NCBI GenBank assembly: GCA_003169655.1 | Contig: PNAZ01000058.1 | Span: 43,587 to 75,588, forward strand | Length of the DNA stretch: 32,002 nt | Direction of reading: 5' to 3' | Source: Chloroflexota bacterium | GTDB taxonomy: Bacteria; Chloroflexota; Limnocylindria; Limnocylindrales; CSP1-4 | Shown here: positions 4,843 to 31,167 of the stretch, in pieces | How the letters are laid out: each line of letters opens with the position of its first letter | Position numbering within the stretch: position 1 is the stretch's first letter | The notes under the pieces: generated by a model | Database searches by the model: none | The model's input: the letters and a program-made list of their open reading frames with translations, nothing else | Told to the model about the DNA's origin: nothing | Translations under genes and position numbers: made by a program

Positions 4843-6033
4843 CTAGCGTCGGGCGGGAGTGAGGAGTTCGCCCAATGCCCCGACGACCCGGTCAAGGTCG
4901 ACGTCGGCCATTCCCGGCCAGATCGGCAGGGAGATCACCCGCTCAAACTCTCGGCTGGCGATGGGTAAGGCTCGTGGCGTCGTCTCCGGTCGAGACCGGT
5001 AATACGGGTGGAGGTGGAGCGGAATGAAGTGCACGCTCGCCCCGATTCCTCGTGCCTGGAGGCCGTCCATGACCGCCGCCCGGTCGATTCTCAAGCGCTC
5101 GAGCCGGAGTCGGACAACATACAGATGCCAGGCGTGGGACTCGTCGGGAGCGTCAGCCGGGAGATCGAGCAGGTCGTCGAACCCGGATCCGAGGAAACGC
5201 CGGCGGTAGCCGGCGGCAAGCTCGCGTCGCGCGGCAAGGAGCTCCTCGGCTCGACTCAGCTGGGCCAGGCCGAGAGCCGCCGCCAGGTCGGTCATGTTGT
5301 ATTTGAAGCCGGCGTCCTCGATCTCGTACGACCAGCTGCCGCCGGCCGCATACCGGTTCCAGGCATGGCGGCTGATCCCATGGAGGCCCATCAGGCGGGC
5401 CCGGTCGGCCAGTGCGTCGTCGTCGGTCACGAGCATCCCGCCCTCGCCGGTGGTGATCGTCTTCGTCGCGTAGAACGAGAACGCGCCGGCGCGCCCGATC
5501 GTGCCTGCGAACCGCCCGCCGAGCTCGGCGATCCGGCTCGGGAAAGCGTGGGCCGTATCTTCGACAACCGGAATCCCGCGGCGGTCGAGGCGATCCACGA
5601 GCTCGCCGATCGCCATCGGCCGGCCACCGAAGTGAACGGCGACGACCGCCTTCGTCCGCGGCGTGATGGCCTCCTCGATCGTTTCCGGGGTGGCGTTGAG
5701 GGTCGCGGCGTCGACATCAACCAGGACCGGCACCGCATCGCGATAGACGACCACCTCGGCACTCGCCGCGAAGGTCCAGGTGGGCACGATGACCTCGTCG
5801 CCTGGCCCGACCCCGAGCCCCTCGAGCGCCAGGTGGAGGGCGGCCGTGGCCGAGTTGAACGCCAGCGCGTGGCGGCTCCCGACGGTCTCAGCGAAGCGCG
5901 CTTCGAACTCCTTGGTCCGGGGTCCGGTCGTCAGCCAGCCAGAGTCCAGGACATCGAGGACCGCCGCCCGCTCGAGGGCGGTGATCGACGGTCGGGCGAA
6001 CGGCAGGAATTCGAGCGACGCTTCAGCCTTCAT
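4843..6033 (-). CDS. DegT/DnrJ/EryC1/StrS family PLP-dependent sugar aminotransferase
   Basis: SGWLTTGP, NSATAALHL, VVEDTAHAF, FSFYATKTITTGEGGM (PLP lysine), GFKYNMTD and HAWHLY. Start overlaps the upstream stop (ATGA). Confidence 0.95.
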   Translation of the reverse strand: MKAEASLEFLPFARPSITALERAAVLDVLDSGWLTTGPRTKEFEARFAETVGSRHALAFNSATAALHLALEGLGVGPGDEVIVPTWTFAASAEVVVYRDAVPVLVDVDAATLNATPETIEEAITPRTKAVVAVHFGGRPMAIGELVDRLDRRGIPVVEDTAHAFPSRIAELGGRFAGTIGRAGAFSFYATKTITTGEGGMLVTDDDALADRARLMGLHGISRHAWNRYAAGGSWSYEIEDAGFKYNMTDLAAALGLAQLSRAEELLAARRELAAGYRRRFLGSGFDDLLDLPADAPDESHAWHLYVVRLRLERLRIDRAAVMDGLQARGIGASVHFIPLHLHPYYRSRPETTPRALPIASREFERVISLPIWPGMADVDLDRVVGALGELLTPARR

Positions 6034-6782
6034 CGAGCAACTGCCAACAGCGTCCGGCCCAGGAGGTTGAGGTCCGAGGCCAGCGAGCGGTGGGCCAGGT
6101 AGGCAGCGTCGAGGGCCAGCTTCGCCGGCAGGATCTCCTCGACGTACCTCTGTTCGATGTCGCGGCTGGCCAGGAGCGACTCCTCGTGCCTGAACTCGAT
6201 CTGGGCCGGGCCGGTGATCCCCGGGCGAGCACAGAACACCGCCCGATGGAGTGGATTCGACCAGTCCGCGTAGCGGGGATCCTCGGGCCGGGGGCCAACC
6301 AGGCTCATCTCGCCTCGGAGAACGTTCCAGAGCTGGGGCAGCTCATCGAACTTGGCCTGGCGCAGTACGCGGCCGACCCGCGTGATTCGAGCGTCACCGG
6401 CGGCCGTGACGGCGGGTCCAGCGATGGCCGCCCGCATCGTTCGCAGCTTCAGTGCGTGGAAGGGCCGACCGCCTTCACCCATCCGGACCGCCGAGTAGAA
6501 CAGCGGACCGCTGTCTCCGGAGATCCGATTGGCGATGAACGTGGCGGCCAGGACGGGTCCGGAACAGACCAGCAAGGGGACACCGATCACGACGTCCAGG
6601 CAGCGTTTCCAGAACGGGAAGGCCGGCTGCGGCACCACCGAAGCGGCTCCGACGGTCGCGCTGGAGACGATCTGATCATGCACGGTTGGAAACCTGATCT
6701 CCGATTGAGGCTGGGGCAAATCGTAGCGTCTTGCCGGTCCGGGCGAAGTCCCGAGCCTAGGGATTCCTGATCCGATTGACAA
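6030..6782 (-). CDS. Priming sugar (phosphoglycosyl) transferase, PglC/WcaJ C-terminal type
   Basis: KRCLDVV plus TM, KLRTM, DARITRVGRVLR, DELPQLWNVLRGEMSLVGPRPE and RPGITGPAQ. Start may be further downstream. Confidence 0.93.
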   Translation of the reverse strand: MSIGSGIPRLGTSPGPARRYDLPQPQSEIRFPTVHDQIVSSATVGAASVVPQPAFPFWKRCLDVVIGVPLLVCSGPVLAATFIANRISGDSGPLFYSAVRMGEGGRPFHALKLRTMRAAIAGPAVTAAGDARITRVGRVLRQAKFDELPQLWNVLRGEMSLVGPRPEDPRYADWSNPLHRAVFCARPGITGPAQIEFRHEESLLASRDIEQRYVEEILPAKLALDAAYLAHRSLASDLNLLGRTLLAVAR

Positions 6783-6836: not shown

Positions 6837-8870
6837 TCAGCGGCGCACTGCGTTCGCCGGCACACCGACGGCGGTGCTCGAGTTGAGGCGATCGACGATC
6901 GTCTTGAAATCCACGGTCGACCGCCGCGAGGGGACGCTCCGGATGAGCCGTTCGTGGAGCAGCCCCGTGGACAGAACGCCGACGAGAGCCATGTTGTCGG
7001 TATTCGAAAACTGCTTGCCGGCCGGCCAGTCCTGGACCTTGCGCCAGAGCTGGCCGACTGCCGCCGGGTTGAAGACCCCCGCCTCGCTCACGGCGCTCTC
7101 GCTGATCACCTCAGCGACCCAGTCGACCGGGTTCGGCCCAGTGAATGACAATGCGTCCGGCGCCCGGAAGGGCTGCTTGGAGCGACGAATGATGTCGGCC
7201 GGCACGAGCCCTGCCGCCGCGCGCTTGAGGATGTGCTTCTCGTCCAGCCCGCGGAGCTTGAACGCTGGCGACAGGGAGTTCGCCAACGCCACGACGTTGA
7301 TGTCCAGGAACGGGAACCTGCCCTCGACCGAGTGGGCCATCAGCATCCGGTCGCCCTGCGATGAGAGCAGGTAGCCCGACAGCAGGGTGCGCACCTCGAG
7401 GTACTGGTCCTGGGCCAGGAACGACCAGGACTCGAAGGCCGGCGGGAGTGAGGCGAGCAGGCGCCCGACGACGTCGACCTGGGCTGCCCGTTCGTGCACC
7501 TCGGCGACGAACAGGCGCTGGAGGGCGGCCGCTGATTGCCAGCGGATCTGGTGGGCAAACCCGGCCTCGGCCCACGTGGCCCGATCGCGCCCGAAGAACT
7601 CCCGGGCCATCGCCTGCTGGGCCGTGGGCGACCGGGCGAGGTACGGGTAGAGCCGTTCGAGCAATCGCGGCCGAAGCTTCGATCCGGGTTGCCGGCCCCA
7701 GAACCGGCGCACCTTGCCTTCGCGGAAGATGTCGTAGCCCGCGAACATCTCGTCGGCGCCCTCGCCGGTGAGGACGACCTTGATGCCGGTCTCGTGGACC
7801 AGTCGCGACAGCAGGAAGAGCGGTGCTGCTGCCGTGCGCAGGAGCGGGCGCTCGGCGTGGGCGACCACGTCGGGAAAGACATCGGCGATATCCCGACGGC
7901 TGACCGTGATCTCGTGATGGTCGCTTTCGATGAGCGCGGCCACCGATCGTTGGAACGCTGTCTCGTCGTACTCGGCATCTTCGAACCGGATCGAGAACGT
8001 GTTGAACTTGTCGCCCTTGACCCGCCGCCCGAGCGCTGCGACGAGCGAGCTGTCAAGCCCGCCCGAGAGGTACGACCCGACAGGCACGTCGGCGCGCAGC
8101 ATCCGCAGCCGGACTGCGTCCTCGAGCGCGGAGCGGACTCGCTCGGCCGCACCCTCGATCGACTCCTGCGATGCTGCCTGTGGCGCGGGATAGCTCGGCG
8201 TCCAGTAGGCCCGGTCCGTGGTCGTCTCCCGAGAGATCGTCCGAACGTGACCCGGCTCGAGCTCGGTGATCCCTTCGAAGACCGCCTGCGGGGCGACGCT
8301 GGTCCAGAAGGTGAATGTCTCGGCCAGGCCGACCGGGTCGAGCCGGCGCGGGATCGAAGGGTCGCCGGCGAAGATCGCCTTGACCTCGCTCGCGAACCAC
8401 AGCCGCCCGCCGTGGGTGCACAGGAACAGGGGTCGAACGCCCAGCCGGTCACGGGCCAGGACGAGCGTGGCCGTATCCGAGTTCCAGAGTGCCAGGGCAA
8501 ACTGGCCGTTGAACCGGGCAAAGGCGTCGTCCGCCCATTGCTCGTAGGCGTGGACGATGACTTCGGTGTCGCTGGCGGTCCGGAACTGATGCCCCAGCTG
8601 GACGAGCTCCGCCCGAAGCTCGACGTAGTTGTAGATCTCGCCGTTGAACACGATCCACAGCGAGCCCGATTCGTTGCATATCGGCTGCTGGCCCGTCGCC
8701 AGGTCGATGATCGAGAGGCGGGCCATGGCCAGTCCCGCGGTCCGATCGCGATACAGGCCGAACTCATCCGGCCCGCGATGGCGGATCGCAGCGATCATCG
8801 CCGTCAGGTCTTCACGCGTCGGTGGGCCAACCCCATCGCCCAACGCGATCGACCCTGCAATTCCGCACAC
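6837..8870 (-). CDS. asnB: Asparagine synthase (glutamine-hydrolysing)-like amidotransferase
   Basis: N-terminal MCGIAG (Ntn Cys2), HRGPD, NGEIYNY, RDRLGVRPL, SGGLDSS, TGEGADE and DRMLMAHSVEGRFPFLD. Confidence 0.95.
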   Translation of the reverse strand: MCGIAGSIALGDGVGPPTREDLTAMIAAIRHRGPDEFGLYRDRTAGLAMARLSIIDLATGQQPICNESGSLWIVFNGEIYNYVELRAELVQLGHQFRTASDTEVIVHAYEQWADDAFARFNGQFALALWNSDTATLVLARDRLGVRPLFLCTHGGRLWFASEVKAIFAGDPSIPRRLDPVGLAETFTFWTSVAPQAVFEGITELEPGHVRTISRETTTDRAYWTPSYPAPQAASQESIEGAAERVRSALEDAVRLRMLRADVPVGSYLSGGLDSSLVAALGRRVKGDKFNTFSIRFEDAEYDETAFQRSVAALIESDHHEITVSRRDIADVFPDVVAHAERPLLRTAAAPLFLLSRLVHETGIKVVLTGEGADEMFAGYDIFREGKVRRFWGRQPGSKLRPRLLERLYPYLARSPTAQQAMAREFFGRDRATWAEAGFAHQIRWQSAAALQRLFVAEVHERAAQVDVVGRLLASLPPAFESWSFLAQDQYLEVRTLLSGYLLSSQGDRMLMAHSVEGRFPFLDINVVALANSLSPAFKLRGLDEKHILKRAAAGLVPADIIRRSKQPFRAPDALSFTGPNPVDWVAEVISESAVSEAGVFNPAAVGQLWRKVQDWPAGKQFSNTDNMALVGVLSTGLLHERLIRSVPSRRSTVDFKTIVDRLNSSTAVGVPANAVRR

Positions 8871-8872
8871 AG

Positions 8873-9547
8873 CTAGTCTTCCGAGCCAGCGTCGGCGATC
8901 GCCGGTCGTTCCACGCCGGCCGCCGGTCGGCGTTCAAAGATGAAGACCCAGCGGATTCCGAGGAGGCGTCCGAGCGATCCGTCCGCGGCCCGAAGGACCG
9001 CGCCCGGCAGCTGGCTGTAGAGCACGGATGGCAGGATCTGGTGCCGGAATCGATGGACGAGGTCAAACCCCGCCCGGTCGGCGATCCGAAGATGGTCCCG
9101 GGCTCGGCTCCAGTGCTCACCCCACAGGTTTGGCAGGATAAAGATGAACCGGCCACCTGCTGGCAGGGCCGCATGGACGGATTCGTAGGTCTCCTCGACG
9201 AGCTCGAGGTCAGGCGTGATCAGGACCGAGATCGACTGGGCCAGGACGTTCGTGTAGTGCCGATCGATGCCACTCACCAGGTCGGTGGCATCCATGATCC
9301 TGGCCTGGAGTCCCCGCGACAGCATGAAGTCCACGAGGAAGGGCTGGACGTCGGACGGGGTCACATCCAGTCCCCTCGCAGCCAGGAGCTCGGAGAGCTG
9401 GCCGCAGCCGGCGCCGATTTCGAGGATCGGACCCGGCCGGAAGTAGGGCACCAGGGTCGGGATGAATAGCGCGTCCTTGGCGCGTTGACGCCGCGTCGTC
9501 GCAAGCATCGTCGGTAGTACGCCGGGAACGTAGTGAAATTCGGTCAT
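8873..9547 (-). CDS. Class I SAM-dependent methyltransferase
   Basis: Motif I ILEIGAGCGQLS, acidic motif II (PSDVQP) and post-motif LPAGGRFIF. Stop lies 2 nt before the asnB start. Confidence 0.8.
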   Translation of the reverse strand: MTEFHYVPGVLPTMLATTRRQRAKDALFIPTLVPYFRPGPILEIGAGCGQLSELLAARGLDVTPSDVQPFLVDFMLSRGLQARIMDATDLVSGIDRHYTNVLAQSISVLITPDLELVEETYESVHAALPAGGRFIFILPNLWGEHWSRARDHLRIADRAGFDLVHRFRHQILPSVLYSQLPGAVLRAADGSLGRLLGIRWVFIFERRPAAGVERPAIADAGSED

Positions 9548-9573
9548 CTGCCAGTGCCAGCCTATCTGCCCGG

Positions 9574-10701
9574 TTAGAGGTTCACAGGTCCGTCGCCATC
9601 GCCCCGATTGAGGTAGAACCTGGTCAGGTTGCTTCCTAACGGTCCCAATCGCTCGGCTAGGCTGGGTGATGCCGCGAATAGAAAGTTCGACGGCCCGCTC
9701 AGAAAGCCATTCCGCTTGAGCGCGGCACCGAGCGGCCGGAAGGTCTGGTTGGTCACGATCAGGTCGACGCCCTGGTGCTGCAGCCGGTCGACCGCCGCCT
9801 TGACAAGGGCGGCCTCATAGCCAGGCACAGCGAGCAGGTCGACAATCGAACCAAGTTTGAGATCACCGAAGTACTTGTCGTCGCTCCGCTGGGTGGCCAG
9901 GCAGACTGCCCAGCCGCACGGTCGACCTTCATCCTCGATCGCGACCCTGAGGAATGGGCTGCCCTTTGAATCGTACAACTGAGCCAACAGTGCCCCGTCC
10001 CGGACGGCACCGAACGCGAAGGTACCCCGGGCGGCTCCCCAGACGGAATCTGCGCAGCCTTCAAACGAGCTCACCTCGTTCACCACAACTCTCGTCCGCT
10101 GACGGGTCAGGCCCGCTCGATAGCGTTGCAGCCCCCGGATGCCGAGGGCGCCGAGCCCGCTCGCTGCGGCCACATCCGCGGCGATGCGCCGGGACTTCGA
10201 GGTCCGAAGAGGTCCAACCTGGCGGAGGAACCGGGCGGGATGCTCCACCCGGAAGTGGAACGGGACAGTGGCAAATTGGAATCGGGCGCCCTTCAGCAGG
10301 CGCGCAATCGCATGGTCGTAGCCACCAATCCCAAGACCATAGATCAACGGTTGGCCGCCAAGTGCGTGGCGGAGCAGCCGCGGCCCGATCAATGCGAAGC
10401 GCTTGTCGATCGTCCCCTCGGACAGCGCCTGCTGGAAGAAGCCGATCGAGGTGACAACGTCATTGATCATGAACTCCTGGTGCTTGAGCGTGTACCCGCC
10501 ATGCACTCCCTGGCCATCGACGGCCAGGAACAGCTCCTCGTGGATGCCCGCGCCCGGGACCCGTGCGGAGCCGACATTGGTTTCTCGGAGCAGGCTGCGC
10601 ATCCCGAACGCGACGGTGACACCAGCGGCATGCAATCGAGCATTGAAGGCCTGGACCGCCGGAATGTGCGTGGCTTCGTAGGGGACAATCTCGAGGGTCA
10701 T
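9574..10701 (-). CDS. Hypothetical protein, possible tandem GNAT-fold acyl/aminoacyl transferase
   Basis: 375 aa with EIVPYE-like beta1, TIDKRFALIGPRLLRHAL (motif A-like), VRDGALLAQLY, GSIVDLL and LKRNGF, resembling two GNAT halves. Fold call is inference. Confidence 0.55.
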   Translation of the reverse strand: MTLEIVPYEATHIPAVQAFNARLHAAGVTVAFGMRSLLRETNVGSARVPGAGIHEELFLAVDGQGVHGGYTLKHQEFMINDVVTSIGFFQQALSEGTIDKRFALIGPRLLRHALGGQPLIYGLGIGGYDHAIARLLKGARFQFATVPFHFRVEHPARFLRQVGPLRTSKSRRIAADVAAASGLGALGIRGLQRYRAGLTRQRTRVVVNEVSSFEGCADSVWGAARGTFAFGAVRDGALLAQLYDSKGSPFLRVAIEDEGRPCGWAVCLATQRSDDKYFGDLKLGSIVDLLAVPGYEAALVKAAVDRLQHQGVDLIVTNQTFRPLGAALKRNGFLSGPSNFLFAASPSLAERLGPLGSNLTRFYLNRGDGDGPVNL

Positions 10702-10716
10702 CGTGGTGCGCCGCCG

Positions 10717-11691
10717 CTAGCTCGGACCGATGGTGAGCTTGCTCATCAGCCAGCGCCGTTCGAGGCCTTGACGCTGCCGGTCTGAGATCACGGTCGGCCC
10801 CCGCTGTTGGGCCAGGAAGTCGAGCAGTGTGGTGACCGGCACGAACCAACCGTTCTTGCCGGCCAGGCGCTCCATAAGCGACTGGAAGCGCGGATTGATG
10901 TGGCCGTCGTCGTTGAAGCCCGAAGCGAAGTGGGTGTACATGATCGAAGCCCCGCCGCGAGCCTCCAGGCGGTCCATGTTCGCCTCCGTGAGGCAGCGAT
11001 TGAAGGCCTCCACGTTCCGTCCCTCGGACGACGCAAACCAGTGGTTCACGTAGGGCCGCTCGGGGTCGTGGTAGGGCATCATGGGGCAGGCCGCGAGCGT
11101 GTCAAGTTCCTTGAAGGTGAAGTTCCGAACGTAGCGCACCTTCTCCTTGCAGATATCGCCCCAAAACAACGGATCCCCTTCGCAGTGGCCCCGGAATCGC
11201 CCGTTGCCCCTGAAACGGGTGAGGAGGTTGTAGGCCAGGCGATTGATTCCTGTCACGCGGTCGGCCCCCCAATAGATCGACTCGCCGCAGGCCAGGTGAT
11301 TGGCCATCGAGAGCGGGTAGTGGCCATACAAGTCATTGAACCGTTCGATCGCCGCGATCACCCGTTCACGCGGTGAGGTTACGAACGTGGCGCCGTGGTA
11401 GCCGATCTCAAAGCCCTTGGCCTGGAGGCCCAGGGTCCAGGCCAGGTATTCCGGGTCTGCGCAGGTCGACCCGCTGAAGTCCGGCGACCCCTCCCCCCTC
11501 AGAGGCCAGACCGATTTCGTTGTGCGCAACCCAAGGCCGTCGAGGACGTCGTAGACCGGCCTGACCAGCTCGAGCGTAGCGCTGTCGGTGTCATCGAAGA
11601 TCGTGAAGGCGAAGTCTCTGCCATCCGGCCACTGGATCCGCGGACGCTCTGCCGCGGACGAGCCAATCCCAACCCGACCAGCCGATCTCAC
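10717..11691 (-). CDS. Polysaccharide deacetylase-fold (NodB/CE4-like) hypothetical protein
   Basis: WPDGRDFAFTIFDDTD, GFEIGYHGA, ANHL and IMYTHFASGF. The ORF-track start (11892) overlaps wzx, so GTG 11691 is preferred but tentative. Confidence 0.65.
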   Translation of the reverse strand: MRSAGRVGIGSSAAERPRIQWPDGRDFAFTIFDDTDSATLELVRPVYDVLDGLGLRTTKSVWPLRGEGSPDFSGSTCADPEYLAWTLGLQAKGFEIGYHGATFVTSPRERVIAAIERFNDLYGHYPLSMANHLACGESIYWGADRVTGINRLAYNLLTRFRGNGRFRGHCEGDPLFWGDICKEKVRYVRNFTFKELDTLAACPMMPYHDPERPYVNHWFASSEGRNVEAFNRCLTEANMDRLEARGGASIMYTHFASGFNDDGHINPRFQSLMERLAGKNGWFVPVTTLLDFLAQQRGPTVISDRQRQGLERRWLMSKLTIGPS

Positions 11692-11830
11692 CGGATCATC
11701 GAGCCTCGTGGGCAGAGCCGAGCCGGAGGTCGTCCGGCCCCGTCGAGATCGACGGCAATGTGTGCTACTCCCTCTCCCTCGTCCGGCATCATCCCATGTC
11801 TGGAGCTGCTCGGGCACCCTCCGATCCGGT

Positions 11831-13147
11831 TCATTCGGGACGCCAGGCCCGCGACCGATGGCTCGTGATCGCACGCCACGATGTGAGGCCATAGGCGATG
11901 TAGGTCAGGCAGCCCGCCACGCTGAAGATGGCGACGGCGAGCACCGGCGACGCATGGATCATGACGGAGATGAAGGCGGCGGTCCCTACGAAAACGAGTC
12001 GCAGAACCTCGCGCACGAGATGGAGGTCCTGGCGCTCGAGCACGTCGAGCGTGCCGCCCGTCGGGCTCGTCACGAGCTGGAGGTAGAACATCGGGGCCAG
12101 GATGGCCACGTACAGTCCTGCGTCGCGCCAGGCCTCGCCGAAGATGAGCCCGGCAAGGATCGGCGCGAGGATCGCCAGCAGCAGGAATGGGCCCGCAGCC
12201 AGGAGGGCGAGGACCCGGGTGGTCCTTCCGAACATGACCCGCATCTCCGACGGCTGCTCACGAGCGAGCCGCGCGGTTTCCGCCACGAAGACTTGCGAGA
12301 CTGCCGCGGCCACGAGCGTTACCGGCAAGGCGCCGATTCGGACGGCCAGGGCGAACTGCCCGCCCACGGCCGCACCGTAGATTCCCACGAGCAGCAGCAG
12401 TGGCGCCTGCTCGCCGAGCGTGTTCATCAGGGCTGATCCACTCGAAAAGATCGGGAATCTTTGGTACCGCCGGGCGGCGTACCTGATGCCTGCCCAGGTG
12501 ACGGCTCGAAATGCCGGTGCGTGGGTGCGCCAGGCAACCCGGGCAAGTCGGATGAATCCGGCCTGGTTGCCGGCGACTGAGCCGAGGAGCATGCCGACCG
12601 GGCCAAGGCGGATCACCCCAAGGGCGACCTGGACCACGACGAGCGTGGCGCTCTGGGTCAAGCGGTTGATCCCGATATCGGTGAACCGCTTGGTCCTGAT
12701 CGCCCAGCCCGTGAGGGCCAGCACGATCCCGGCCCCGAGTTGACCGACGGCAATCAGGACGGCCCACTGGGCGACCGTCGGAGCTCCGAGCAGGGTCAGG
12801 AGCCAGGGGCCCCAAAGCCACAGGGCAACGGCGGCGATCAGGCTCGTGCCGATCGCGACGAGGAGGCATAGACCAAGGACGTTCGCCGCGGCGACGTCGG
12901 ATTCAGGGAGGGGGATTGCCCATTCGTAGCGCAGGCAGGTGACCACGATGAGGACCGACAGGACCGAGTTCGCCACCGAGTACGAGCCGACGTCAGACGG
13001 TGTATAGAGCCTGGTGATGATCGGCGCGCTGATCACGACGATGGCCTGGCCGATCGTCGCCGCACCGACGAGGGTCACGACCCCCTGCTTGAGCTCGCCT
13101 TGGGGCAGCATGCGGCGCCAGAGGTCAGGGATCCGCATGAACGGCAT
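11831..13147 (-). CDS. wzx: Oligosaccharide flippase (Wzx / MOP superfamily)
   Basis: About 12 hydrophobic segments; PIITRLYTPSDVG, LRYEWAIPLP, RRYQRFPIFS and IFGEAWRDAG. Confidence 0.88.
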   Translation of the reverse strand: MPFMRIPDLWRRMLPQGELKQGVVTLVGAATIGQAIVVISAPIITRLYTPSDVGSYSVANSVLSVLIVVTCLRYEWAIPLPESDVAAANVLGLCLLVAIGTSLIAAVALWLWGPWLLTLLGAPTVAQWAVLIAVGQLGAGIVLALTGWAIRTKRFTDIGINRLTQSATLVVVQVALGVIRLGPVGMLLGSVAGNQAGFIRLARVAWRTHAPAFRAVTWAGIRYAARRYQRFPIFSSGSALMNTLGEQAPLLLLVGIYGAAVGGQFALAVRIGALPVTLVAAAVSQVFVAETARLAREQPSEMRVMFGRTTRVLALLAAGPFLLLAILAPILAGLIFGEAWRDAGLYVAILAPMFYLQLVTSPTGGTLDVLERQDLHLVREVLRLVFVGTAAFISVMIHASPVLAVAIFSVAGCLTYIAYGLTSWRAITSHRSRAWRPE

Positions 13148-13268
13148 TGTGGCGCACGGTGGCAGGCACCGCGAACCATTACGAAAGGGCTGGCAAGCGG
13201 CCGACTCTCAGGTATCTTGTGCCACCGCTGCCACGACTGGGATCGTAGGGCGGCCGTTTGGCGTCGAC

Positions 13269-13274
13269 TATGCT
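13269..13274 (+). promoter_or_regulatory. Putative -10 element TATGCT for the adenylation enzyme-ACP-nadE-hemK operon
   Basis: TANNNT hexamer in the divergent intergenic region, about 70 nt before ATG 13345. Confidence 0.3.
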
Positions 13275-13344
13275 GTCAGTTCGATTGACTCGTGCGGAGG
13301 GCGACCTCAGGGTTGCCGCGGCCGCGCTGACTTCGAGGGCGGGA

Positions 13345-14868
13345 ATGCTGTTACAGGACGACTTTGAAGGCTGGGTTGAGCGTGACGCCGACCGGCTGGC
13401 GCTCGTGTGCGGCCCGGAACGCTATACGTATGGCGACGTTCACGGGCTGGCCCAGGCCGTCGCAGCGACGCTCCGGGAGGGAGGCATCGTGCGCGGCGAC
13501 CGGGTCGCGCTCTTTCTCGACAACGGCGTGGAGCTGGTCGCCGGGGTGCTGGCCAGCCTGACCCTTGGAGCCGTGTTCATGCCGATCAATCCATCGACGA
13601 AGGAGGACAAGCTCGGCTACATGCTCAGGGACGCCCGGGCGAGCGCACTATTGACCCACGATTCGCTCCGTTCGGTTTGGGATCCAGCGGTCACGTCGAG
13701 CCCGAGCGTGCGATCTGTGCTCGTCGCGGGCCAGGCTGAATGGCCGAGCGGTAACCAGCCGGCGATCCTGCCCTGGCCTCGCGATGGAGTCGCTGCGGCC
13801 GCACCGGACACGATTGACCAGGACCTGGCTGCGATCATCTACACGTCGGGCTCGACCGGCCTGCCCAAGGGCGTCATGCTCAGCCACCTCAACATGGTCA
13901 GCGCGGCTCGATCAGTCAGCACCTACCTGGGGCTGCGCGGCACTGACGTCATCATGTGCGCGTTGCCACTGTCCTTCGACTACGGGCTGTACCAGGTCTT
14001 GATGGCGTTCCGGCTGGGCGCCTGCGTGGTGCTTGAACGCAACTTCTCGTTCCCGGTTGAAGTGCTCAATTCGATGGTCAGGCAGCAGGTGACCGTCTTT
14101 CCCGGCGTCCCGACGATGTTCTCGATGCTGATGGCCTACGGCAACCTGACCACGTACGATCTCGCCTCCCTACGCATGATCACCAACACGGCGGCGGCCC
14201 TCTCGGAGACCCACATCCGCCGCTTGCGCGAGCTCTTTCCGCAGGCCCAGCTGTTCTCCATGTACGGCCTGACCGAGTGCAAACGGGTGACCTACCTGCC
14301 GCCCGAGCAGCTTGACATCCGGCCGACCAGCGTGGGCCGAGGGATGCCCAACGAGGAGGTCTGGCTGGTGGACGACGAGGGGCGACGCCTGCCCAACGGC
14401 GCCACCGGTGAGCTGGTGATCCGGGGCAGCAACGTGATGCGCGGCTACTGGGAAAAGCCCGAGGAGACAGCTGCCCGCCTGAAGCCGGGTCCAATCCCGG
14501 GCGAGATGGTCCTCTACTCTGGTGATCTCTTCCGTACCGACTCCGACGGATGGCTGTATTTTGTGGCGCGTCGCGATGACATCATCAAGAGTCGCGGCGA
14601 GAAGGTTAGCCCTCGGGAAGTGGAGAACGCGATCTCCTCCCTCGAAGGTGTGTATGAGGTGGCGGTGATCGGTATCCCGGACGACGTGCTGGGACAGGCA
14701 ATCAAGGCGTTTGTCACCCTCACGCCCGGCGCACAGCTCACCGAGCGCGAGGTGATCCGCCATTGCCTGGCGCACCTGGAGAGCTTCATGGCGCCGAAAT
14801 ACGTCGAGTTTGTCGAGTCCCTGCCCAAGACCGGGACCGGCAAGATCAAGAAGACCGGCCTCGCCTGA
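13345..14868 (+). CDS. Stand-alone adenylate-forming enzyme (ANL superfamily), likely loads the adjacent carrier protein
   Basis: IIYTSGSTGLPKGV, LPLSFDYGLYQ, MYGLTECKRV, YSGDLF, RRDDIIKSRGEKVSPREVE and LPKTGTGKIKK. ATG 13345 follows GAGGGCGGGA and is preferred over TTG 13258. Confidence 0.92.
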   Translation: MLLQDDFEGWVERDADRLALVCGPERYTYGDVHGLAQAVAATLREGGIVRGDRVALFLDNGVELVAGVLASLTLGAVFMPINPSTKEDKLGYMLRDARASALLTHDSLRSVWDPAVTSSPSVRSVLVAGQAEWPSGNQPAILPWPRDGVAAAAPDTIDQDLAAIIYTSGSTGLPKGVMLSHLNMVSAARSVSTYLGLRGTDVIMCALPLSFDYGLYQVLMAFRLGACVVLERNFSFPVEVLNSMVRQQVTVFPGVPTMFSMLMAYGNLTTYDLASLRMITNTAAALSETHIRRLRELFPQAQLFSMYGLTECKRVTYLPPEQLDIRPTSVGRGMPNEEVWLVDDEGRRLPNGATGELVIRGSNVMRGYWEKPEETAARLKPGPIPGEMVLYSGDLFRTDSDGWLYFVARRDDIIKSRGEKVSPREVENAISSLEGVYEVAVIGIPDDVLGQAIKAFVTLTPGAQLTEREVIRHCLAHLESFMAPKYVEFVESLPKTGTGKIKKTGLA

Positions 14869-14898
14869 GCGGGGGACCTGCGGAGGAATCAACGGCGA

Positions 14899-15150
14899 AT
14901 GCGGGACTACAAAGCCGATCTGCGCAAGTTCATCGACGACAACTACATCATTGGCCTCAACGGGCCTGCCTTCGCGGATGCCGACTCATTCATGGATCGG
15001 CGGATCATCGACTCCACGGGATTCCTGGAGCTGGTCATGTTCCTCGAGGAGACGTGGGGCGTCGTCGTCGCCGATGACGAGATGGTCCCCGAGAACCTCG
15101 ATAGCCTCGACCAGCTTCAGGCCTACCTGACCAGCAAGCTCGGCGCGTGA
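14899..15150 (+). CDS. Acyl/aminoacyl carrier protein
   Basis: 83 aa, acidic; IIDSTGFLELVMFLEE (phosphopantetheine serine) and MVPENLDS; GGAGG RBS upstream. Confidence 0.92.
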   Translation: MRDYKADLRKFIDDNYIIGLNGPAFADADSFMDRRIIDSTGFLELVMFLEETWGVVVADDEMVPENLDSLDQLQAYLTSKLGA

Positions 15151-16166
15151 GCGGCGCGTCCGAACGGATGGCGATGCCCGCAGCCGCGCCCCTGGAGCCG
15201 CAGGTCCTCGAGCTGGACGTCGCCGCCGAGGTCGAGCGCATCTGCGCCTGGATGGTGCAGGAAGTCTCTTCAACGCTGCACCGGCGAGGGGTCGTTGTCG
15301 CCATGTCGGGCGGAGTGGACAGCTCGGTCTGCGCCGCACTCGCGGTGCGGGCCCTTGGCCCCCGGAAGGTCTACGGGCTGCTGCTCCCCGAACGGGATTC
15401 CAAGACGGCCAGCTCCGACCTCGGTCGGGAGGTCGCCGAGTACCTGGGCATGTCTTACGAGCTGATCGACATCTCGCCGACGCTCCAGGCAATTGGCTGC
15501 TACCGCCTGCGCGACGACGCAATCCGGGTGGTGTTCCCGGACTACGCCGAGGATTGGAAATGCAAGGTCGCGATCGCCGGCGGCGCGACAGGCGGGATCA
15601 ACTTCTTCAAGCTGATCGTCGAGGCACCAGACGGTCGCCGGCAGGAGGCGCGTTTACCCCTCCGTGAATACCTCCAGGTCGTGGCCGCAACAAGCTTCAA
15701 GCAGCGGGTCCGCAAGACCCTCGAGTACTACCACGCTGACCGCCTGAACTTTGCGGTCATCGGCACGCCTAACCGCCTGGAATACGACCAGGGATTCTTC
15801 GTCAAGAATGGTGATGGCGCTGCCGACCTGAAGCCCATCGCACATCTGTTCAAGACGCAGGTCTATGCCCTGGCGAACTACCTCGGCTTGCCCGCGGACG
15901 TGTGCGCCGCCCTGCCGACCACTGACACCTACAGCCTGGTCCAGGGCCAGGAGGAGTTCTACTTCGCTCTCCCGTACGACCAGATGGACCTTGCCCTGTG
16001 GGCCCACAACCACGGCCGATCGGCGAGCGAGCTTGCTGTCGCATTGGGGATGACCGAGGAGCACGCTCAGATCGTCTTCACCGACATCGAGGCCAAGCGG
16101 CGAACGACCCACTACCAGCACGCGCGCCCGCTGCTGGTTGAACCAGTGACCGAAGTCAACAGCTGA
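15147..16166 (+). CDS. nadE: NAD+ synthetase (NadE)-like ATP pyrophosphatase without a glutaminase domain
   Basis: PP-loop VVVAMSGGVDSSV, GTPNRLEYDQGFFVKNGDGAADLKPIAHLFKTQV and PTTDTYS. GTGA overlap with the ACP gene. Confidence 0.88.
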   Translation: MSGASERMAMPAAAPLEPQVLELDVAAEVERICAWMVQEVSSTLHRRGVVVAMSGGVDSSVCAALAVRALGPRKVYGLLLPERDSKTASSDLGREVAEYLGMSYELIDISPTLQAIGCYRLRDDAIRVVFPDYAEDWKCKVAIAGGATGGINFFKLIVEAPDGRRQEARLPLREYLQVVAATSFKQRVRKTLEYYHADRLNFAVIGTPNRLEYDQGFFVKNGDGAADLKPIAHLFKTQVYALANYLGLPADVCAALPTTDTYSLVQGQEEFYFALPYDQMDLALWAHNHGRSASELAVALGMTEEHAQIVFTDIEAKRRTTHYQHARPLLVEPVTEVNS

Positions 16167-16168
16167 GC

Positions 16169-17125
16169 ATGGCCAGCCAGCCGGCACCGCGGCCCGTGGA
16201 GTCCGCGCAGCTCGGCGAGGATGATCTCGCCCTGTGGCAGGCGCTGACAGTCCAGCTGGAGCAGGGCCTTGATCGCCTCCCTGACAAGCCGGAAGAGACG
16301 GCCGAGGCAACGATCCGGGTGCTATGGCAGCTCGCAGCGGGCGAACCAATGTCCGTCCAGCGGGCAGCAAGCTGGCCCCTGCCAGCGTCGAGCGTCGAGG
16401 CCCGCGAACGGCTGGGTCGCCTGGTTCGCGAGCGCCTCGCGGGAGTGCCGCTCGCCCATCTCACCCAGCGCCAGACGTTCATGGACGTCGAGATGCTTGC
16501 GGGCCCCGAGGCGCTGATCCCGCGGAGGGAGACGGAGCTGTTGGGTGGCGCGGCTGTTGCACTCCTGCGTCGCCTGGCCGAGGCCAACGCGGACGTCATC
16601 GTCGTGGACGCCTGTACCGGCTCAGGAAACCTGGCGGCGGTGCTGGCACTATCCGAATCCCGGGCGAAGGTCTACGCGTCGGACCTGTCCAGCGAGGCGG
16701 TGACCCTGGCCCGGCGAAACATGGCCCACCTGGGCGTCGAGAAGCGTGTGACGCTACGCGTCGGCGACCTGCTCGAGCCGTTCGACACGGACGAGCTGCG
16801 CGGACGGGTGGACCTGCTCACCTGCAACCCACCGTATATCTCGACCGGACGGATGGCGGCAATGCCCGACGAGATCGTTGGGCATGAACCCGCCCTCGCC
16901 TTTGACGGCGGACCGCTCGGGATCCGGATCCTCCAGCGGCTGATCAGCGAAGCCCCTCGCCTGCTCCGACCCGGTGGTTGGCTGGCTTTCGAGGTCGGCC
17001 TCGGTCAGGGTCCATCAGTCGAGCGTCGGCTGCTCGGGTCGGGAGATTACGGCGACGTCGAGCCGGTGGCGGACGCAGCTGGGCAGACCCGCGCCCTGCT
17101 AGCCCGCCGGCGACAGGACCCGTAG
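16169..17125 (+). CDS. HemK/PrmC-family N-methyltransferase
   Basis: RERLAGVPLAHL, ALIPRRETELL, VDACTGSGNLA, CNPPY, HEPALAFDGG and GGWLAFEVG. Atypical N-terminus (LPDKPEETAE). Confidence 0.88.
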   Translation: MASQPAPRPVESAQLGEDDLALWQALTVQLEQGLDRLPDKPEETAEATIRVLWQLAAGEPMSVQRAASWPLPASSVEARERLGRLVRERLAGVPLAHLTQRQTFMDVEMLAGPEALIPRRETELLGGAAVALLRRLAEANADVIVVDACTGSGNLAAVLALSESRAKVYASDLSSEAVTLARRNMAHLGVEKRVTLRVGDLLEPFDTDELRGRVDLLTCNPPYISTGRMAAMPDEIVGHEPALAFDGGPLGIRILQRLISEAPRLLRPGGWLAFEVGLGQGPSVERRLLGSGDYGDVEPVADAAGQTRALLARRRQDP

Positions 17126-17145
17126 CCGGGACGGATCGAGGCCGC

Positions 17146-17871
17146 CTACGGTTTCAGGCGCTGCTGAGGGATTCGGATGGGCTCAGCCGGGGCGTCGGCA
17201 CGAGGCCCGGCGGCAACGGTCACCTGGTAGCTGAACGACGGCGATGCGTCGTTGCCCGCCTCGAGGCGACGGACGTTCCGCTCACCCTGCATCACAAAGG
17301 CAATGATCGCCGCGGCGACCAGCACGCCGCCGACGGTGCCGAGAATCGTGATCAACAGGACCTTGGGCGAGCTGGGCACCGACGCGGCGACGGCAGGTTC
17401 AACGACCGTCAGGGTGGCATCGGCATTGGCGGCGGTCGTGCCTGGAGACGCGCTTACCGGCGGCGCCAGGGCAATCAGCTCCTTGGCGATCTGGTCGGCG
17501 ACCGCCGCGGCGGCATCGGGCCGCTGATTCGAGACGGTGATCGTCAGCAGGTTGCTGGTATGGGATGCCTCGGCGATCACCTGGTCCGCCAGGGCGTCTG
17601 GCGTCTCATTCAGGCCGACGGCGGTGATCGCCTCCTGAAGGATGGGCCGGAGGGTCGCCAGCTCGGCATAGGTTTGTGCCTGGAGCTGGTTGGCCGCGAG
17701 GATGTCCGTGGTCGCCGTAAATGGCTGGCCCACCAGCAACGTCGTCGTGCTGGAGTACATCTTCGGCAACACAGCTGCAAGGCCATACCCGAGGACGGCT
17801 CCGACAACGTACCCGAGGGCAAGGAGGCGGATCCATCGTCGCGCGATGGAGAGCAGCGGGCGGACTTCCAT
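17146..17871 (-). CDS. Wzz/CpsC (YveK)-like polysaccharide co-polymerase without a kinase domain
   Basis: Start at ATG 17871 with GGGAG RBS. MEVRPLLSIARRW plus TM1, PKMYSSTTTLLV, QTYAELAT, LLTITVS..P..AAAVA and PSSPK plus TM2. Confidence 0.85.
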   Translation of the reverse strand: MEVRPLLSIARRWIRLLALGYVVGAVLGYGLAAVLPKMYSSTTTLLVGQPFTATTDILAANQLQAQTYAELATLRPILQEAITAVGLNETPDALADQVIAEASHTSNLLTITVSNQRPDAAAAVADQIAKELIALAPPVSASPGTTAANADATLTVVEPAVAASVPSSPKVLLITILGTVGGVLVAAAIIAFVMQGERNVRRLEAGNDASPSFSYQVTVAAGPRADAPAEPIRIPQQRLKP

Positions 17872-17895
17872 TGGACTCCCTTTGGCGGTCGAGAC

Positions 17896-17987
17896 AGTAT
17901 ATGGGGGGCGTTTGGCGAGCGCCAATGGGCCCAATGTGCTACGTCGAGGACCATCAGGCAGGCCACCAGGAGGGAGTCCGATATAGT
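17896..17987. promoter_or_regulatory. Divergent promoter region: -10 TATACT (minus, 17896-17901) and -10 TATAGT (plus, 17982-17987)
   Basis: Two near-consensus -10 hexamers in a GC-rich background, each upstream of an RBS and start codon (17871 minus; 18055 plus). Confidence 0.45.
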
Positions 17988-18054
17988 CACGGGCGCCGTC
18001 GGCCTGGACACCGGTTGGACCGTGGGCGAGCTGCCAGCACGCAGGGAGCAACAG

Positions 18055-18918
18055 GTGACACGACTACCGGGGAAGATCAGCGAGCGAGTCTACGGGGACT
18101 TCCTGATGTCCTCGCGCCTCGCCGTGTACCGGGCGCTGCTGGAGACGGCCCTCGAGGCAGGCTACAAGGTGGTCTCGATCGAGGGCTTCTGGGCATTGAT
18201 CAGGGGCAGCATCGTTGACCCGGCTAGCCGCTACATGGTCCTTCGCAACGACATCGATACTGGTCCGAAGACCGCCCGGGCGATGTGGCGGATCGAGCGC
18301 TCGCTGGGGATTGTGAGCTCCTACTTCTTCCGGCTTTCCAGCCTGGACCTGGCCCTGATGGCTGACATCGGCAGCGCCGGTGGCGAGGCCAGCTATCACT
18401 ACGAGGAGCTCGCCACGGTCGCCAAGGGACGGCACCTTCGGACCCCAGCCGAGGCGCTCAGATATCTGCCCGAGGCCCAGGACCTCTTTCGCCTCAACCT
18501 CGACCGACTCCGCGTGTCGAGCGGCCAGCCAATCCGGATCGTCGCCTCACACGGCGATTTCGTGAACCGCAAGCTCGGGCTCACGAACTGGTTGATCCTC
18601 GTAGACCAGCCCTTCCGGGCCGAGGTCGGAATCGAGCTCGAGACGTACGATGCGGCCTTCATGGATCACGTCACCAGCCGCCATGCGGATCTCACCAACC
18701 CGCCGTATTGGACCCCAGCCGACCCCCTGTTGGCCATCGAGCGGGGCGAACCCGTGATCTACGTCCTCGTCCATCCCCGGGGCTGGCAGGTGGAACGCGG
18801 CCTCAACGCGCGGGATGATCTGGTCCGCGGCTGGCAGAGCCTGTGGTATGCGCTCCCGGGTCGGCGGCGCAGACGCGGTTCAAACGCATCGGCGGCGGCC
18901 AAGGTCGGGCGCCAGTGA
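18055..18918 (+). CDS. Polysaccharide deacetylase-fold hypothetical protein
   Basis: Probable start GTG 18055 after AGGGAG. YMVLRNDIDT, SSYFFRL, SYHYEEL, ASHGDFVN and VLVHPRGW resemble the LRHDxD class of EPS-associated CE4-like proteins. Confidence 0.7.
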   Translation: MTRLPGKISERVYGDFLMSSRLAVYRALLETALEAGYKVVSIEGFWALIRGSIVDPASRYMVLRNDIDTGPKTARAMWRIERSLGIVSSYFFRLSSLDLALMADIGSAGGEASYHYEELATVAKGRHLRTPAEALRYLPEAQDLFRLNLDRLRVSSGQPIRIVASHGDFVNRKLGLTNWLILVDQPFRAEVGIELETYDAAFMDHVTSRHADLTNPPYWTPADPLLAIERGEPVIYVLVHPRGWQVERGLNARDDLVRGWQSLWYALPGRRRRRGSNASAAAKVGRQ

Positions 18919-18955
18919 CCAGGCGCCTCAACCCTCGGCGGGCGGCCGGGTCACG

Positions 18956-26949: not shown

Positions 26950-27498
26950 CTAGCGTCGCCTGGGCGCCACCGATCGGAGCACGGTCGCGACGGCCATCCA
27001 GCCGGCCAGGGTCCCGATCGTCAATCCGACGACGAGGCCGCTCAGGTTGTCGAAGACATCGGCGCTCTGGCAGCCCCGTTCTAGGGCGGGCACCAGCAGC
27101 TGGATCGTTTCGATCACGATCGGCAGGGCGATCGCCGCGACAATCAGGCCGGCCTTCTGGCGCGAGCGGGCCAGCAGGCCGAGGGCGACCCCGAGGGGAA
27201 TGAACATCACGATGTTCAGGCTCGTGTCGTCGATCGTCAGCAAGTCGTCGAATGGGGCCAGTCCCATCCGGGAGAAGTCGCAGGCTCGGCCGACGGCCGC
27301 CAGGTTGAGATGGCCGTTGAGCGGCGTCAGGGTCGCCGCCACGATGATCCCGAAGCCGATGACGAGGGCGCAGGCAATCCAGAAGCGCGTCGCCAGCATC
27401 CGGGCGAGCGGCCGACCGAGGGCCAGGCCCAGGACGACGAAGACGGCCGTCCCTGGCACAAACCACGGCAGCAGGTGTCCGTAGGCCCCTTCCATCAA
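26950..27498 (-). CDS. VanZ-family membrane protein
   Basis: LNIVMFIPLG, IETIQLL, R...ADVFDNLSG; about 5 TM segments. Confidence 0.8.
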   Translation of the reverse strand: MMEGAYGHLLPWFVPGTAVFVVLGLALGRPLARMLATRFWIACALVIGFGIIVAATLTPLNGHLNLAAVGRACDFSRMGLAPFDDLLTIDDTSLNIVMFIPLGVALGLLARSRQKAGLIVAAIALPIVIETIQLLVPALERGCQSADVFDNLSGLVVGLTIGTLAGWMAVATVLRSVAPRRR

Positions 27499-30859: not shown

Positions 30860-31167
30860 TGTTCGCTCCTCTTTCACGGGGGGCACGTGTCCCGGAACGG
30901 TTTGCGCCGCTACCACCAACGCCGACCGGCATTGGCTGACCAGTCAAGGTCGAGTTAGAGACGGATGGTCACAGCGGGGCTAGGCGGGGAATCGCGGGGG
31001 TCCCGGGGGCACGAGCGGGGGCCGGCATCTGGGGGTATGTCCGTCCTCAGCCGTCTTCTGAGAGTGACACCGTTTCCCCGACTCCCGGGCCGACGTGGCG
31101 GTGCTGGGCAGAAGTGTACCCAACCTGACCAGACCGTGCCGGAACCGCCTTTTCCGCACGTCGCAAG

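Follow-up and report, generated by a model that had tools for sequence, protein, structure and literature searches.

A conserved ligase, carrier protein and NadE-like cassette with a predicted role in amino sugar decoration in a glycan locus of a Chloroflexota bacterium

The 32,002-nucleotide stretch of contig PNAZ01000058.1 from a Chloroflexota bacterium that we analyzed (hereafter, the window) contains a glycan-assembly locus with two divergent gene groups: a plus arm that encodes an AMP-binding ligase, an acyl carrier protein (ACP), a NadE-like PP-loop enzyme and a HemK-like methyltransferase, and a minus arm that encodes a Wzx-type flippase, a CE4-like protein, a tandem-GNAT protein, a small methyltransferase and an AsnB-family amidotransferase. 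Comparison of gene neighborhoods in other genomes indicates that the plus arm is one version of a widespread, uncharacterized tailoring cassette. The gene order of this arm recurs in dozens of genomes and the arrangement is, therefore, far from chance; judging from these neighborhoods, the core of the cassette consists of the ligase, the ACP and the NadE-like enzyme, with AsnB as a frequent partner and HemK as an optional one. The model that we favor, and to which we would give an even chance, is that an aspartate-type group is loaded on the ACP, amidated and N-methylated there, transferred by the tandem-GNAT protein to a sugar amine, and finally flipped across the membrane by Wzx. A preliminary description of this DNA, made from the sequence alone, had joined the two arms into a single assembly line, and all nine genes on which it relied were recovered in the places it gave them by open reading frame (ORF) and family searches complemented, for two of the genes, with fold models. 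The relevant features are:

2406-4517, minus strand: PglF-like 4,6-dehydratase (PF02719, 354 bits)
4843-6033, minus strand: DegT aminotransferase (PF01041, 395 bits)
6030-6782, minus strand: small Bac_transf priming phosphoglycosyltransferase (PF02397, 167 bits)
6837-8870, minus strand: AsnB-family glutamine-dependent amidotransferase (TIGR01536, 528 bits against a cut-off of 267)
8873-9547, minus strand: small class-I S-adenosylmethionine-dependent methyltransferase, a weak assignment (Methyltransf_23/25, E 0.004-0.006, below cut-off)
9574-10701, minus strand: tandem-GNAT protein of 375 amino acids (predicted fold; no Pfam or NCBIfam match)
10717-11691, minus strand: CE4-like (deacetylase-fold) protein (predicted fold; no Pfam or NCBIfam match)
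11831-13147, minus strand: Wzx-type flippase (PF13440, 60.6 bits against a cut-off of 23; ten hydrophobic segments)
13258-14868, plus strand: AMP-binding ligase (PF00501, 313 bits, and PF13193)
14899-15150, plus strand: ACP of 83 amino acids (weak NCBIfam ACP matches; DSTG serine)
15147-16166, plus strand: NadE-like PP-loop enzyme (NF002048, 480 bits against a cut-off of 313)
16169-17125, plus strand: HemK-like methyltransferase (TIGR00536, 174 bits against a cut-off of 115; NPPY motif)

The wzx and ligase genes are divergent and separated by a 110-bp gap, whereas the ACP and NadE-like genes overlap by 4 bp and the NadE-like and HemK-like genes are 2 bp apart, in agreement with the tight coupling that had been noted for these three genes. 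A scan with the NadE-like protein, using one genome per species, yielded at least 600 pattern matches, 591 of which encode a relative, and we analyzed the best 80 of these at least 591 loci (58-72% identity), calling the neighbors by tblastn with the window proteins (E <= 1e-8, at least half of the query covered). In these best 80 loci, the NadE-like gene is accompanied by a ligase (75/80), an ACP (72/80), AsnB (54/80), HemK (22/80), Bac_transf (13/80) and a DegT-type gene (5/80). Restricting the analysis to the 43 loci that extend 7 kb or more to either side gives counts of 42 for the ligase, 38 for the ACP, 35 for AsnB and 10 for HemK; AsnB is absent within 7 kb in eight of the 43. The hosts include Burkholderiales, Xanthomonadales, Chromatiales, Steroidobacterales, Gemmatimonadota, Acidobacteriota, Polyangia and others. 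Most of the cassettes reside in glycan contexts, with genes for deacetylases, glycosyltransferases and priming transferases, and three (L009, L034 and L071) belong to exopolysaccharide (EPS) loci of the XrtA/PEP-CTERM type. Additional recurrent neighbors among the 80 loci are a weakly GNAT-like protein of about 350 amino acids (23 loci), a PF01522 deacetylase (21), an ATP-grasp protein (9) and a FabH-like gene located directly upstream of AsnB (8). Thus, the view of the plus arm as a functional unit is borne out by the conserved neighborhood, and the co-occurrence of its genes that the preliminary description had expected in other glycan loci is found among the best 80 loci; the glycan setting itself holds for most of them but not for Thiomonas delicata (L041) and Pseudoxanthomonas mexicana (L030), where the cassette lies between housekeeping genes.

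The ligase is named after acyl-CoA ligases by its top NCBIfam matches, TIGR03098 (450 bits, below the cut-off of 592) and PRK06187 (376 bits, also below cut-off). Among solved structures, its best relatives are adenylation (A) domains of nonribosomal peptide synthetases (NRPS), namely LgrA (293 bits) and the VinN entry 3WVN (252 bits), compared to about 200 bits for solved acyl-CoA ligases. When the pocket stretch alone was used as the query, the VinN entries 3WV4 and 3WVN came first in a gapless alignment, with 87 bits against 57 for the next entry; the motifs WDFGLYK, TNSAAAL and TECKRIS of VinN correspond to FDYGLYQ, TNTAAAL and TECKRVT in the window ligase. The accessible text of PMC11253843 describes VinN as binding (2S,3S)-3-methylaspartate as a beta-amino acid (the structure entries list L-Asp as well), with D230 binding the amino group of the substrate, and F231 and S299 pushing the substrate towards the beta13-beta14 loop, which lacks one residue compared with alpha-amino-acid domains and carries K330 and R331. 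The corresponding residues of the window ligase are D, Y, T, K and R, so that all five determinants are kept or conservatively replaced. The pocket residues therefore suggest that the ligase is likely to activate aspartate or a near analog (3-methylaspartate) at the side-chain carboxyl, and the likely intermediate would be aspart-4-yl-S-ACP, in which both the alpha-carboxylate and the amine are free; this alpha-carboxylate is a plausible target for NadE-type amidation. Of the acyl and aminoacyl groups between which the preliminary description had left the choice, the A-domain ranking and the VinN-like pocket point to the aminoacyl option, the ligase being of the amino-acid rather than the fatty-acyl type.

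Three types of ligase pocket are discernible among the 80 loci: the Asp type (xFDYGLYQ ... TECK-R), to which the window belongs; a second type, in which the Asp is replaced by Ser or Asn (FSYGLYH, mostly with TECK-R); and a third type with YYSYGNSV and TEATAR, in which the gene order is ACP-ligase. Judging from these motifs, the ligases of the non-Asp types may load non-amino dicarboxylic acids, e.g., malate or succinate. The NadE-like enzyme is retained alongside both non-Asp pocket types (cassette loci L004-L083). A VinN-like Asp and a short Arg loop are also found in members of TIGR03098 itself, namely the ligase at L034:16468-18069 (minus strand; 640 bits) and the second ligases of L025 and L036, with the pocket motif SFDYGLSQ ... 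TEAF-R. The partners of the TIGR03098 family are an ACP and a pyridoxal phosphate (PLP)-dependent decarboxylase. By analogy with VinN/VinL/VinO, these ligases may load aspartate and make beta-alanyl-ACP, in which case the database name 'acyl-CoA ligase' may be misleading.

The ACP gives only below-cut-off matches to NCBIfam models (40.6 bits for the AmcB type and 36 bits for the OlsHI type), and the serine of its DS(T)G motif is invariant in an alignment of 23 rows and visible in all 69 ORFs inspected. The NadE-like protein scores 146 bits with TIGR00552 (cut-off 64) and its match to PF02540 is split into two pieces (about 64 and 88 bits) by some 65 inserted residues; its SGGVDSS PP-loop is invariant and the mean column identity is 75% (24 sequences). 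A separate, full-length NAD_synthase gene (232-249 bits) is present in 5/5 genomes checked, including that of the window, where the canonical NadE is encoded at G000:C163 (235 bits). The HemK-like protein contains the motif LTCNPPYIS and scores 188 bits with the PrmC model TIGR03534, below its cut-off of 199, with the first 25 model positions unmatched; a separate PrmC above the cut-off is present in 4/4 genomes checked (in the genome of the window, G000:C150, 217 bits). Considering these canonical copies elsewhere in the genomes, the NadE-like and HemK-like proteins appear, from sequence comparison, to be dedicated paralogs rather than products of housekeeping genes, and their inclusion in the module by the preliminary description is upheld. 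We predict that the NadE-like enzyme amidates the carboxylate of a carrier-bound acid. When the NadE-like dimer and the ACP were co-folded from their own alignments, the score was 0.14 against a mark of 0.32, which speaks neither for nor against binding.

The distribution of HemK follows the ligase type: it is present in 21/21 judgeable loci with an Asp-type ligase versus 0/42 judgeable loci of the other types. The former number includes 20 loci by the distance limit and L076, where HemK is 4.2 kb away, beyond that limit; L035, which ends at the NadE gene, 11 non-Asp loci and 5 loci with no readable motif were left out of the count. Thus, the methyltransferase goes with amine-bearing substrates. 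This link is compatible with a methyl group on the new amide or on the amine and discriminates neither.

The 375-residue protein of the minus arm has no match in Pfam or NCBIfam, and the alignment-based AlphaFold model (pLDDT 89) consists of two fused GNAT domains. A Foldseek search with this model retrieved N-myristoyltransferases (NMT) first (E 1e-11, TM about 0.5), and VIA-align comparisons gave Z 19.5 for NMT (root mean square deviation 5.0 over 307 residues), 17.9 for Eis2, 15.1 for the mycothiol synthase MshD, 11.0 for FemX and 14.7-15.7 for glucosamine N-acetyltransferases; the earlier label 'GNAT-like' is thus right at the level of the predicted fold. An hhalign comparison of this family with the cassette-linked family of about 350 amino acids yielded a probability of 98.3% (E 1.8e-14, 277 columns), and the two have a C-terminal acidic motif in common, suggesting that they are remote homologs. 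Pfam scans (27 ORFs in one run and 12 window ORFs in another, partly overlapping) detected no LbH, MBOAT, AT3 or AlmG/lipid A acyltransferase family among the window ORFs. Since another transferase for the cargo of the ACP was not seen in the window, we count this result in favor of the tandem-GNAT protein which, given its modeled fold, is a candidate for the enzyme that hands on the carrier-bound group.

A metagenome scan with the 375-residue family produced 80 loci. A CE4-like gene lies directly upstream of the GNAT gene in 13/57 loci with at least 1 kb of upstream sequence, an AMP-ligase is within 2.5 kb of it in 14/80, and small carrier ORFs with a DSL or DSV motif are located between the GNAT and ligase genes in L091, L114, L135-L137, L139, L141, L145, L149, L154 and L167. 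In L109, L114 and L167, the GNAT family gene is adjoined by homologs of DegT and the priming transferase, and the order of the methyltransferase and GNAT genes of the window recurs in L088. On this comparative evidence, a module of CE4-like protein, tandem GNAT, ACP and ligase recurs, often next to genes for bacillosamine-type sugars. We found no member of the tandem-GNAT family in 400 other sampled genomes of the same phylum.

For the CE4-like protein, the ORF call of 391 amino acids runs to position 11892, whereas its relatives have 310-330 amino acids (P0241, with 99% identity, has 324); the ORF is therefore probably over-long, with a start near 11691. The model of this protein (pLDDT 88) retrieved PuuE allantoinase, putative polysaccharide deacetylases and ArnD in Foldseek (E 5e-7 to 2e-5, TM about 0.5), and a FDDTD motif and three His residues are invariant in the family alignment. 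Nevertheless, the protein matches neither PF01522 nor any other Pfam or NCBIfam model, and hhalign comparison of its family with the PF01522 deacetylases of the cassette loci gave a probability of only 40%. Accordingly, the deacetylase fold mentioned in the preliminary description stands as a resemblance of the modeled fold; we claim kinship with deacetylases at that level only, and no homology.

The PglF-like, DegT and Bac_transf genes are the likely source of an acceptor, a 4-amino-4,6-dideoxy-hexosamine. All three have homologs close to the cassette in L175 and, together with the neighbors of the GNAT family described above, this sustains the connection to a PglF/DegT amino sugar that had been suggested.

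Gene content, neighborhoods, paralog status, pocket residues, folds and remote homology are results of the comparisons described here; the chemical steps that we infer would be as follows. The VinN-like ligase would adenylate L-aspartate or an analog (3-methylaspartate) at the side-chain carboxyl and load it on the ACP, yielding aspart-4-yl-S-ACP, with the pocket Asp holding the alpha-amino group and the Lys-Arg pair holding the alpha-carboxylate. The NadE-like enzyme would then adenylate the free alpha-carboxylate and amidate it with ammonia, to give an isoasparaginyl thioester, after which the HemK-like NPPY methyltransferase would N-methylate the new carboxamide or, less likely, the amine; the carboxamide is favored as the methyl acceptor because it is closest to the glutamine amide that HemK normally methylates. 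The tandem-GNAT protein would move the group to a sugar amine, either the 4-amino group introduced by PglF/DegT or an amine released through the action of the CE4-like protein, and the finished lipid-linked unit would be flipped by Wzx. An amidated and N-methylated group on the ACP had already been envisaged in the preliminary description, and the conserved plus arm and the amino-acid-type ligase agree with this, but AsnB, which was part of that scheme, is not the ortholog of the cassette enzyme (see below). The most specific version of the scheme, that NadE- and HemK-family enzymes have been recruited to convert an ACP-bound aspartyl into an N-methyl-isoasparaginyl group that the GNAT protein attaches to bacillosamine-type sugars, is offered tentatively, as a possibility that we rate below an even chance. 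In that case, the ligase-ACP-NadE core, which spans Proteobacteria, Gemmatimonadota, Acidobacteriota, Myxococcota-like lineages and the phylum of the window itself, would be a widespread, previously unrecognized module for glycan decoration.

Several observations weigh against this scheme. In the metagenome set, a ligase is within 2.5 kb of the GNAT gene in only 10/40 loci with at least 2.2 kb of downstream sequence, and hence the GNAT family need not use a carrier protein. The genome of the window also encodes a second methyltransferase and tandem-GNAT pair (G000:C158:40713-42472, equivalent to L084:10711-12491), with 58% and 56% identity, respectively, to the proteins in the window; this pair has no ligase, ACP or glycan genes nearby, its neighbors being SnoaL-like, STAND-ATPase and FMN-dehydrogenase genes (the methyltransferase copy matches Methyltransf_12 with 33 bits). 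The proposed connection of the two arms is therefore only partly sustained: the GNAT family is tied to ACP and ligase elsewhere, but the methyltransferase/GNAT pair also stands without them. Furthermore, the comparison of AsnB sequences indicates that the enzyme in the window is not an ortholog of the cassette-linked AsnB. The window protein retains the N-terminal MCGIAG with the catalytic Cys and the SGGLDSS PP-loop, scores 424 bits with TIGR03108 (below the cut-off of 817) and has as its best solved relative the hydroxyamidotransferase 7YLZ (214 bits), which we take to be TsnB9; it has 49-52% identity to the AsnB of the Burkholderiales group of cassettes, versus 65-73% within that group. Its membership in the assembly line, as previously assumed, is not supported by these values and its place is uncertain. 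Because neither the window nor its flanks yielded a gene for uronic acid formation, a WbpS-like role would have no obvious substrate encoded here; probably, the window AsnB carries out a glutamine-dependent amidation of its own, with either the sugar or the same group as the target. The cassette usually has an AsnB of its own, which makes two amidating enzymes for one free aspartyl carboxylate; the additional activity may serve amidation of the acceptor sugar, an amidine or nitrile series, or other substrates in the non-Asp subtypes. The substrate of the NadE-like enzyme may also be free rather than carrier-bound. Finally, the loci are related, so that the link between HemK and the Asp-type ligases probably goes back to a single event, or a few events, in evolution rather than to 21 independent ones.

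The arms of the module apparently have different histories. The window ligase and NadE-like protein are 65-75% and 63-72% identical, respectively, to those of the Burkholderiales group of Asp-type cassettes, within which the corresponding values are 66-76% and 62-79%; by these identities, the two proteins nest within that group. Homologs of the NadE-like protein (E <= 1e-80) are encoded in 8/401 sampled genomes of the same phylum, this one included, and the in-phylum homologs are more distant from the window (43-49% identity for NadE-like proteins and 33-51% for ligases). In 5/6 in-phylum loci that were fetched, the NadE-like gene is accompanied by ACP, ligase and AsnB, with AsnB flanked by the ligase and NadE-like genes in L175-L177 and the order Lig-AsnB-NadE-ACP in L178 and L180. 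The sequence relationships thus suggest that the plus arm was horizontally acquired from a Burkholderiales-like source; being closer to Burkholderiales than to its own phylum, it seems to have arrived separately from the minus arm, which suggests that the minus arm to which it became joined was either resident or itself separately acquired.

These histories are relevant for an alternative that we consider unlikely, namely that the two arms are functionally separate, the cassette acting on a small molecule, a lipid or another envelope acceptor, and the GNAT, methyltransferase and CE4-like proteins using an acyl-CoA donor. Such a separation would fit the cassettes that lie among housekeeping genes in L030 and L041, the solitary methyltransferase-GNAT pair at G000:C158, the majority of the metagenome GNAT loci that have no ligase nearby, and a plus arm that is as close to the Burkholderiales versions as those are to each other while in-phylum NadE-like proteins are at 43-49%. 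However, it leaves aside the homology of the GNAT family to the cassette-linked transferase (hhalign 98.3%), the recurrence of GNAT-ACP-ligase arrangements, the glycan contexts of most cassettes, and the lack of another transferase for the ACP cargo in the window. Quite unlikely, in our estimate, is a different chemistry within the same frame, such that the HemK-like enzyme methylates the aspartyl alpha-amine and/or the two PP-loop enzymes act in series (carboxylate to amide to amidine or nitrile) or one of them on the sugar. In favor of this reading, HemK occurs strictly with the amine-binding Asp although amidating enzymes accompany all ligase subtypes, and we also count the AsnB positions in L175-L177, L178 and L180 on this side; amidine- and nitrile-forming enzymes are known among the PP-loop family (PseA/WbpG and QueC). 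On the other hand, the NPPY motif of the HemK family typically goes with methylation of planar amide or exocyclic amine nitrogens. The sequence features examined here do not separate these options.

The remaining alternatives deny the cassette a special function. The ligase could be an ordinary acyl-CoA or fatty-acyl ligase and the glycan could be N-acylated with a plain fatty or short chain, as the names of its top NCBIfam matches might imply; this is very unlikely, given that the solved NRPS A domains outscore the solved acyl-CoA ligases, that both the amine-binding Asp of VinN and its carboxylate-binding Lys-Arg pair are in place in the pocket, and that a plain chain would leave a carboxylate-amidating enzyme without a target. 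We rejected a plain fatty-acyl ligase on the basis of the A-domain ranking and the pocket. By far the least probable reading is that the NadE-like and HemK-like genes encode the NAD synthetase and the release-factor methyltransferase of the cell and are found here by chance. Both proteins pass family cut-offs (NF002048, TIGR00552 and TIGR00536), but separate canonical copies exist in this and the other genomes checked, the NadE-like gene is adjacent to the ligase in 75/80 and to the ACP in 72/80 loci from several phyla, and the HemK-like protein falls below the PrmC cut-off with the beginning of the model unmatched. With canonical copies elsewhere and conserved adjacency in the cassette, the housekeeping reading was rejected and is close to refuted.

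Among characterized systems, the proposed module resembles both the loading of amino acids by VinN/VinL and the Dlt/Alm type of envelope decoration, and fails the defining partner features of both. Like VinN/VinL (with VinO) of vicenistatin biosynthesis, it has a stand-alone ligase with a discrete ACP, a matching pocket and a short beta13-beta14 loop, and the free alpha-carboxylate of the tethered acid would offer the following enzyme its point of attack. Vicenistatin biosynthesis continues with a decarboxylation by a PLP enzyme, whose product serves to prime a polyketide synthase (PKS), whereas neither a decarboxylase nor a PKS domain was detected here and the neighbors are the NadE-like and HemK-like genes in a glycan locus. 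Specifically, the Pfam scans of the window ORFs detected no condensation, ketosynthase, decarboxylase or PKS acyltransferase domains, in accordance with the reported lack of the first two. In DltA/DltC and AlmE/AlmF, a small amino acid loaded on a carrier decorates teichoic acid or lipid A, respectively, and the shared feature is a ligase with a dedicated carrier protein, adjacent here and in 72/80 loci. In those systems, the unmodified amino acid is transferred as an ester by membrane acyltransferases (the MBOAT protein DltB and AlmG), whereas in the window enzymes of these types were not seen, and we predict on-carrier tailoring, a soluble tandem-GNAT protein and an amine acceptor.

The XrtA/PEP-CTERM set (the ligase TIGR03098, an ACP, the decarboxylase TIGR03099, the amidotransferase TIGR03108 and the deacetylase TIGR03006) provides the nearest NCBIfam models for the ligase and AsnB. 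It differs in that both window proteins are below the respective cut-offs (450 vs 592 and 424 vs 817), a search of this genome, at 81% completeness, found no exosortase (PF09721), and L034 has a true TIGR03098 ligase (640 bits) besides the cassette ligase. The window AsnB, with its Cys and PP-loop, shares glutamine- and ATP-dependent carboxylate amidation with WbpS (uronamide formation), OxyD (formation of a malonamyl starter) and 7YLZ, but falls outside TIGR03108 and outside the cassette-linked AsnB group. Another proposed ACP-based route to N-acyl groups involves the tetronate genes of V. cholerae O1. Amino sugars with N-acyl decorations are on record: the sections of PMC3210612 available to us list amino sugars with dicarboxylic acids attached through the distal carboxyl, such as 4-D-malyl on GlcNAc3N-uronamide, N-acetyl-alanyl and N-acetyl-glycyl on the 4-amino-4,6-dideoxy sugar Qui4N, sometimes along with uronamides, and acylated bacillosamine. 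In contrast to the gene set described here, these are product structures to which the same sections assign no biosynthetic genes, and the sections make no mention of an N-methyl-isoasparaginyl substituent. Literature searches on PEP-CTERM/exosortase, floc formation, asparagine synthase, ACP ligase and NAD synthase found no description of the cassette, consistent with the earlier statement that no characterized pathway has the full gene set. In the main text of the Rubrivivax EPS paper (PMC3684757), as accessible, 'ligase' and 'acyl carrier' have zero matches and none of the six listed matches to 'NAD' refers to NAD synthase.

The glycan-assembly locus as a whole spans approximately 969 to 30919 of the window (G+C content 67%) and is flanked by purine-catabolism genes and a GH25 gene on the left and by AMP-ligase and pentose-phosphate genes on the right. 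Of the parts of a Wzx/Wzy pathway, Wzx and Bac_transf are clear by Pfam. The best Wzy candidate is encoded at 18815-20299 (plus strand; 494 amino acids, at least 9 hydrophobic segments, no family match), preceded by a gene for a soluble protein of 256 amino acids with no family match (18148-18918, plus strand), and there is a weak Wzz-like gene at 17146-18051 (PF02706, 20.5 bits vs 25.5; TIGR01006, 50 bits vs 296). A call of a 646-amino acid ORF at 16978-18918 was dismissed as an artifact of high G+C. The locus further encodes a VanZ-like membrane protein (26950-27498, minus strand; PF04892, 42.6 bits) and two paralogs with no Pfam match (20329-21027, minus strand, and 27741-28835, plus strand; 71% identity over 232 residues), the second, longer one of which starts with a hydrophobic segment at the N-terminus and includes a linker rich in Pro and Thr; these are possibly secreted glycan-associated proteins. 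At the right edge, a second AMP-binding ligase (30980-32002, minus strand) continues in L168:755-2586; its motif YGLTETSPIV indicates an ordinary acyl-CoA-synthetase type, and beyond the window it is represented by two overlapping ORFs, possibly due to a frameshift or an assembly error. In an Rfam scan of the window, no family reached the gathering score, and a promoter/terminator scan of the 110-bp divergent gap found nothing.

To our knowledge, the NadE family has so far been known only for making NAD, and the HemK family is known for methylating glutamine amides in proteins. The cassette is small, soluble and present in culturable strains, which makes the proposal directly testable by mass spectrometry of the ACP. 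If the proposal is correct, it would provide the first function for a very common 'NAD synthase' paralog to which annotation pipelines at present give the name NadE, a function outside translation for a HemK paralog, and a route by which amide-bearing acyl or aminoacyl groups are placed on bacterial amino sugars, structures that often have no assigned genes. It would also suggest that the 'acyl-CoA ligases' of exosortase-type EPS loci are aspartate-type carrier-protein ligases.

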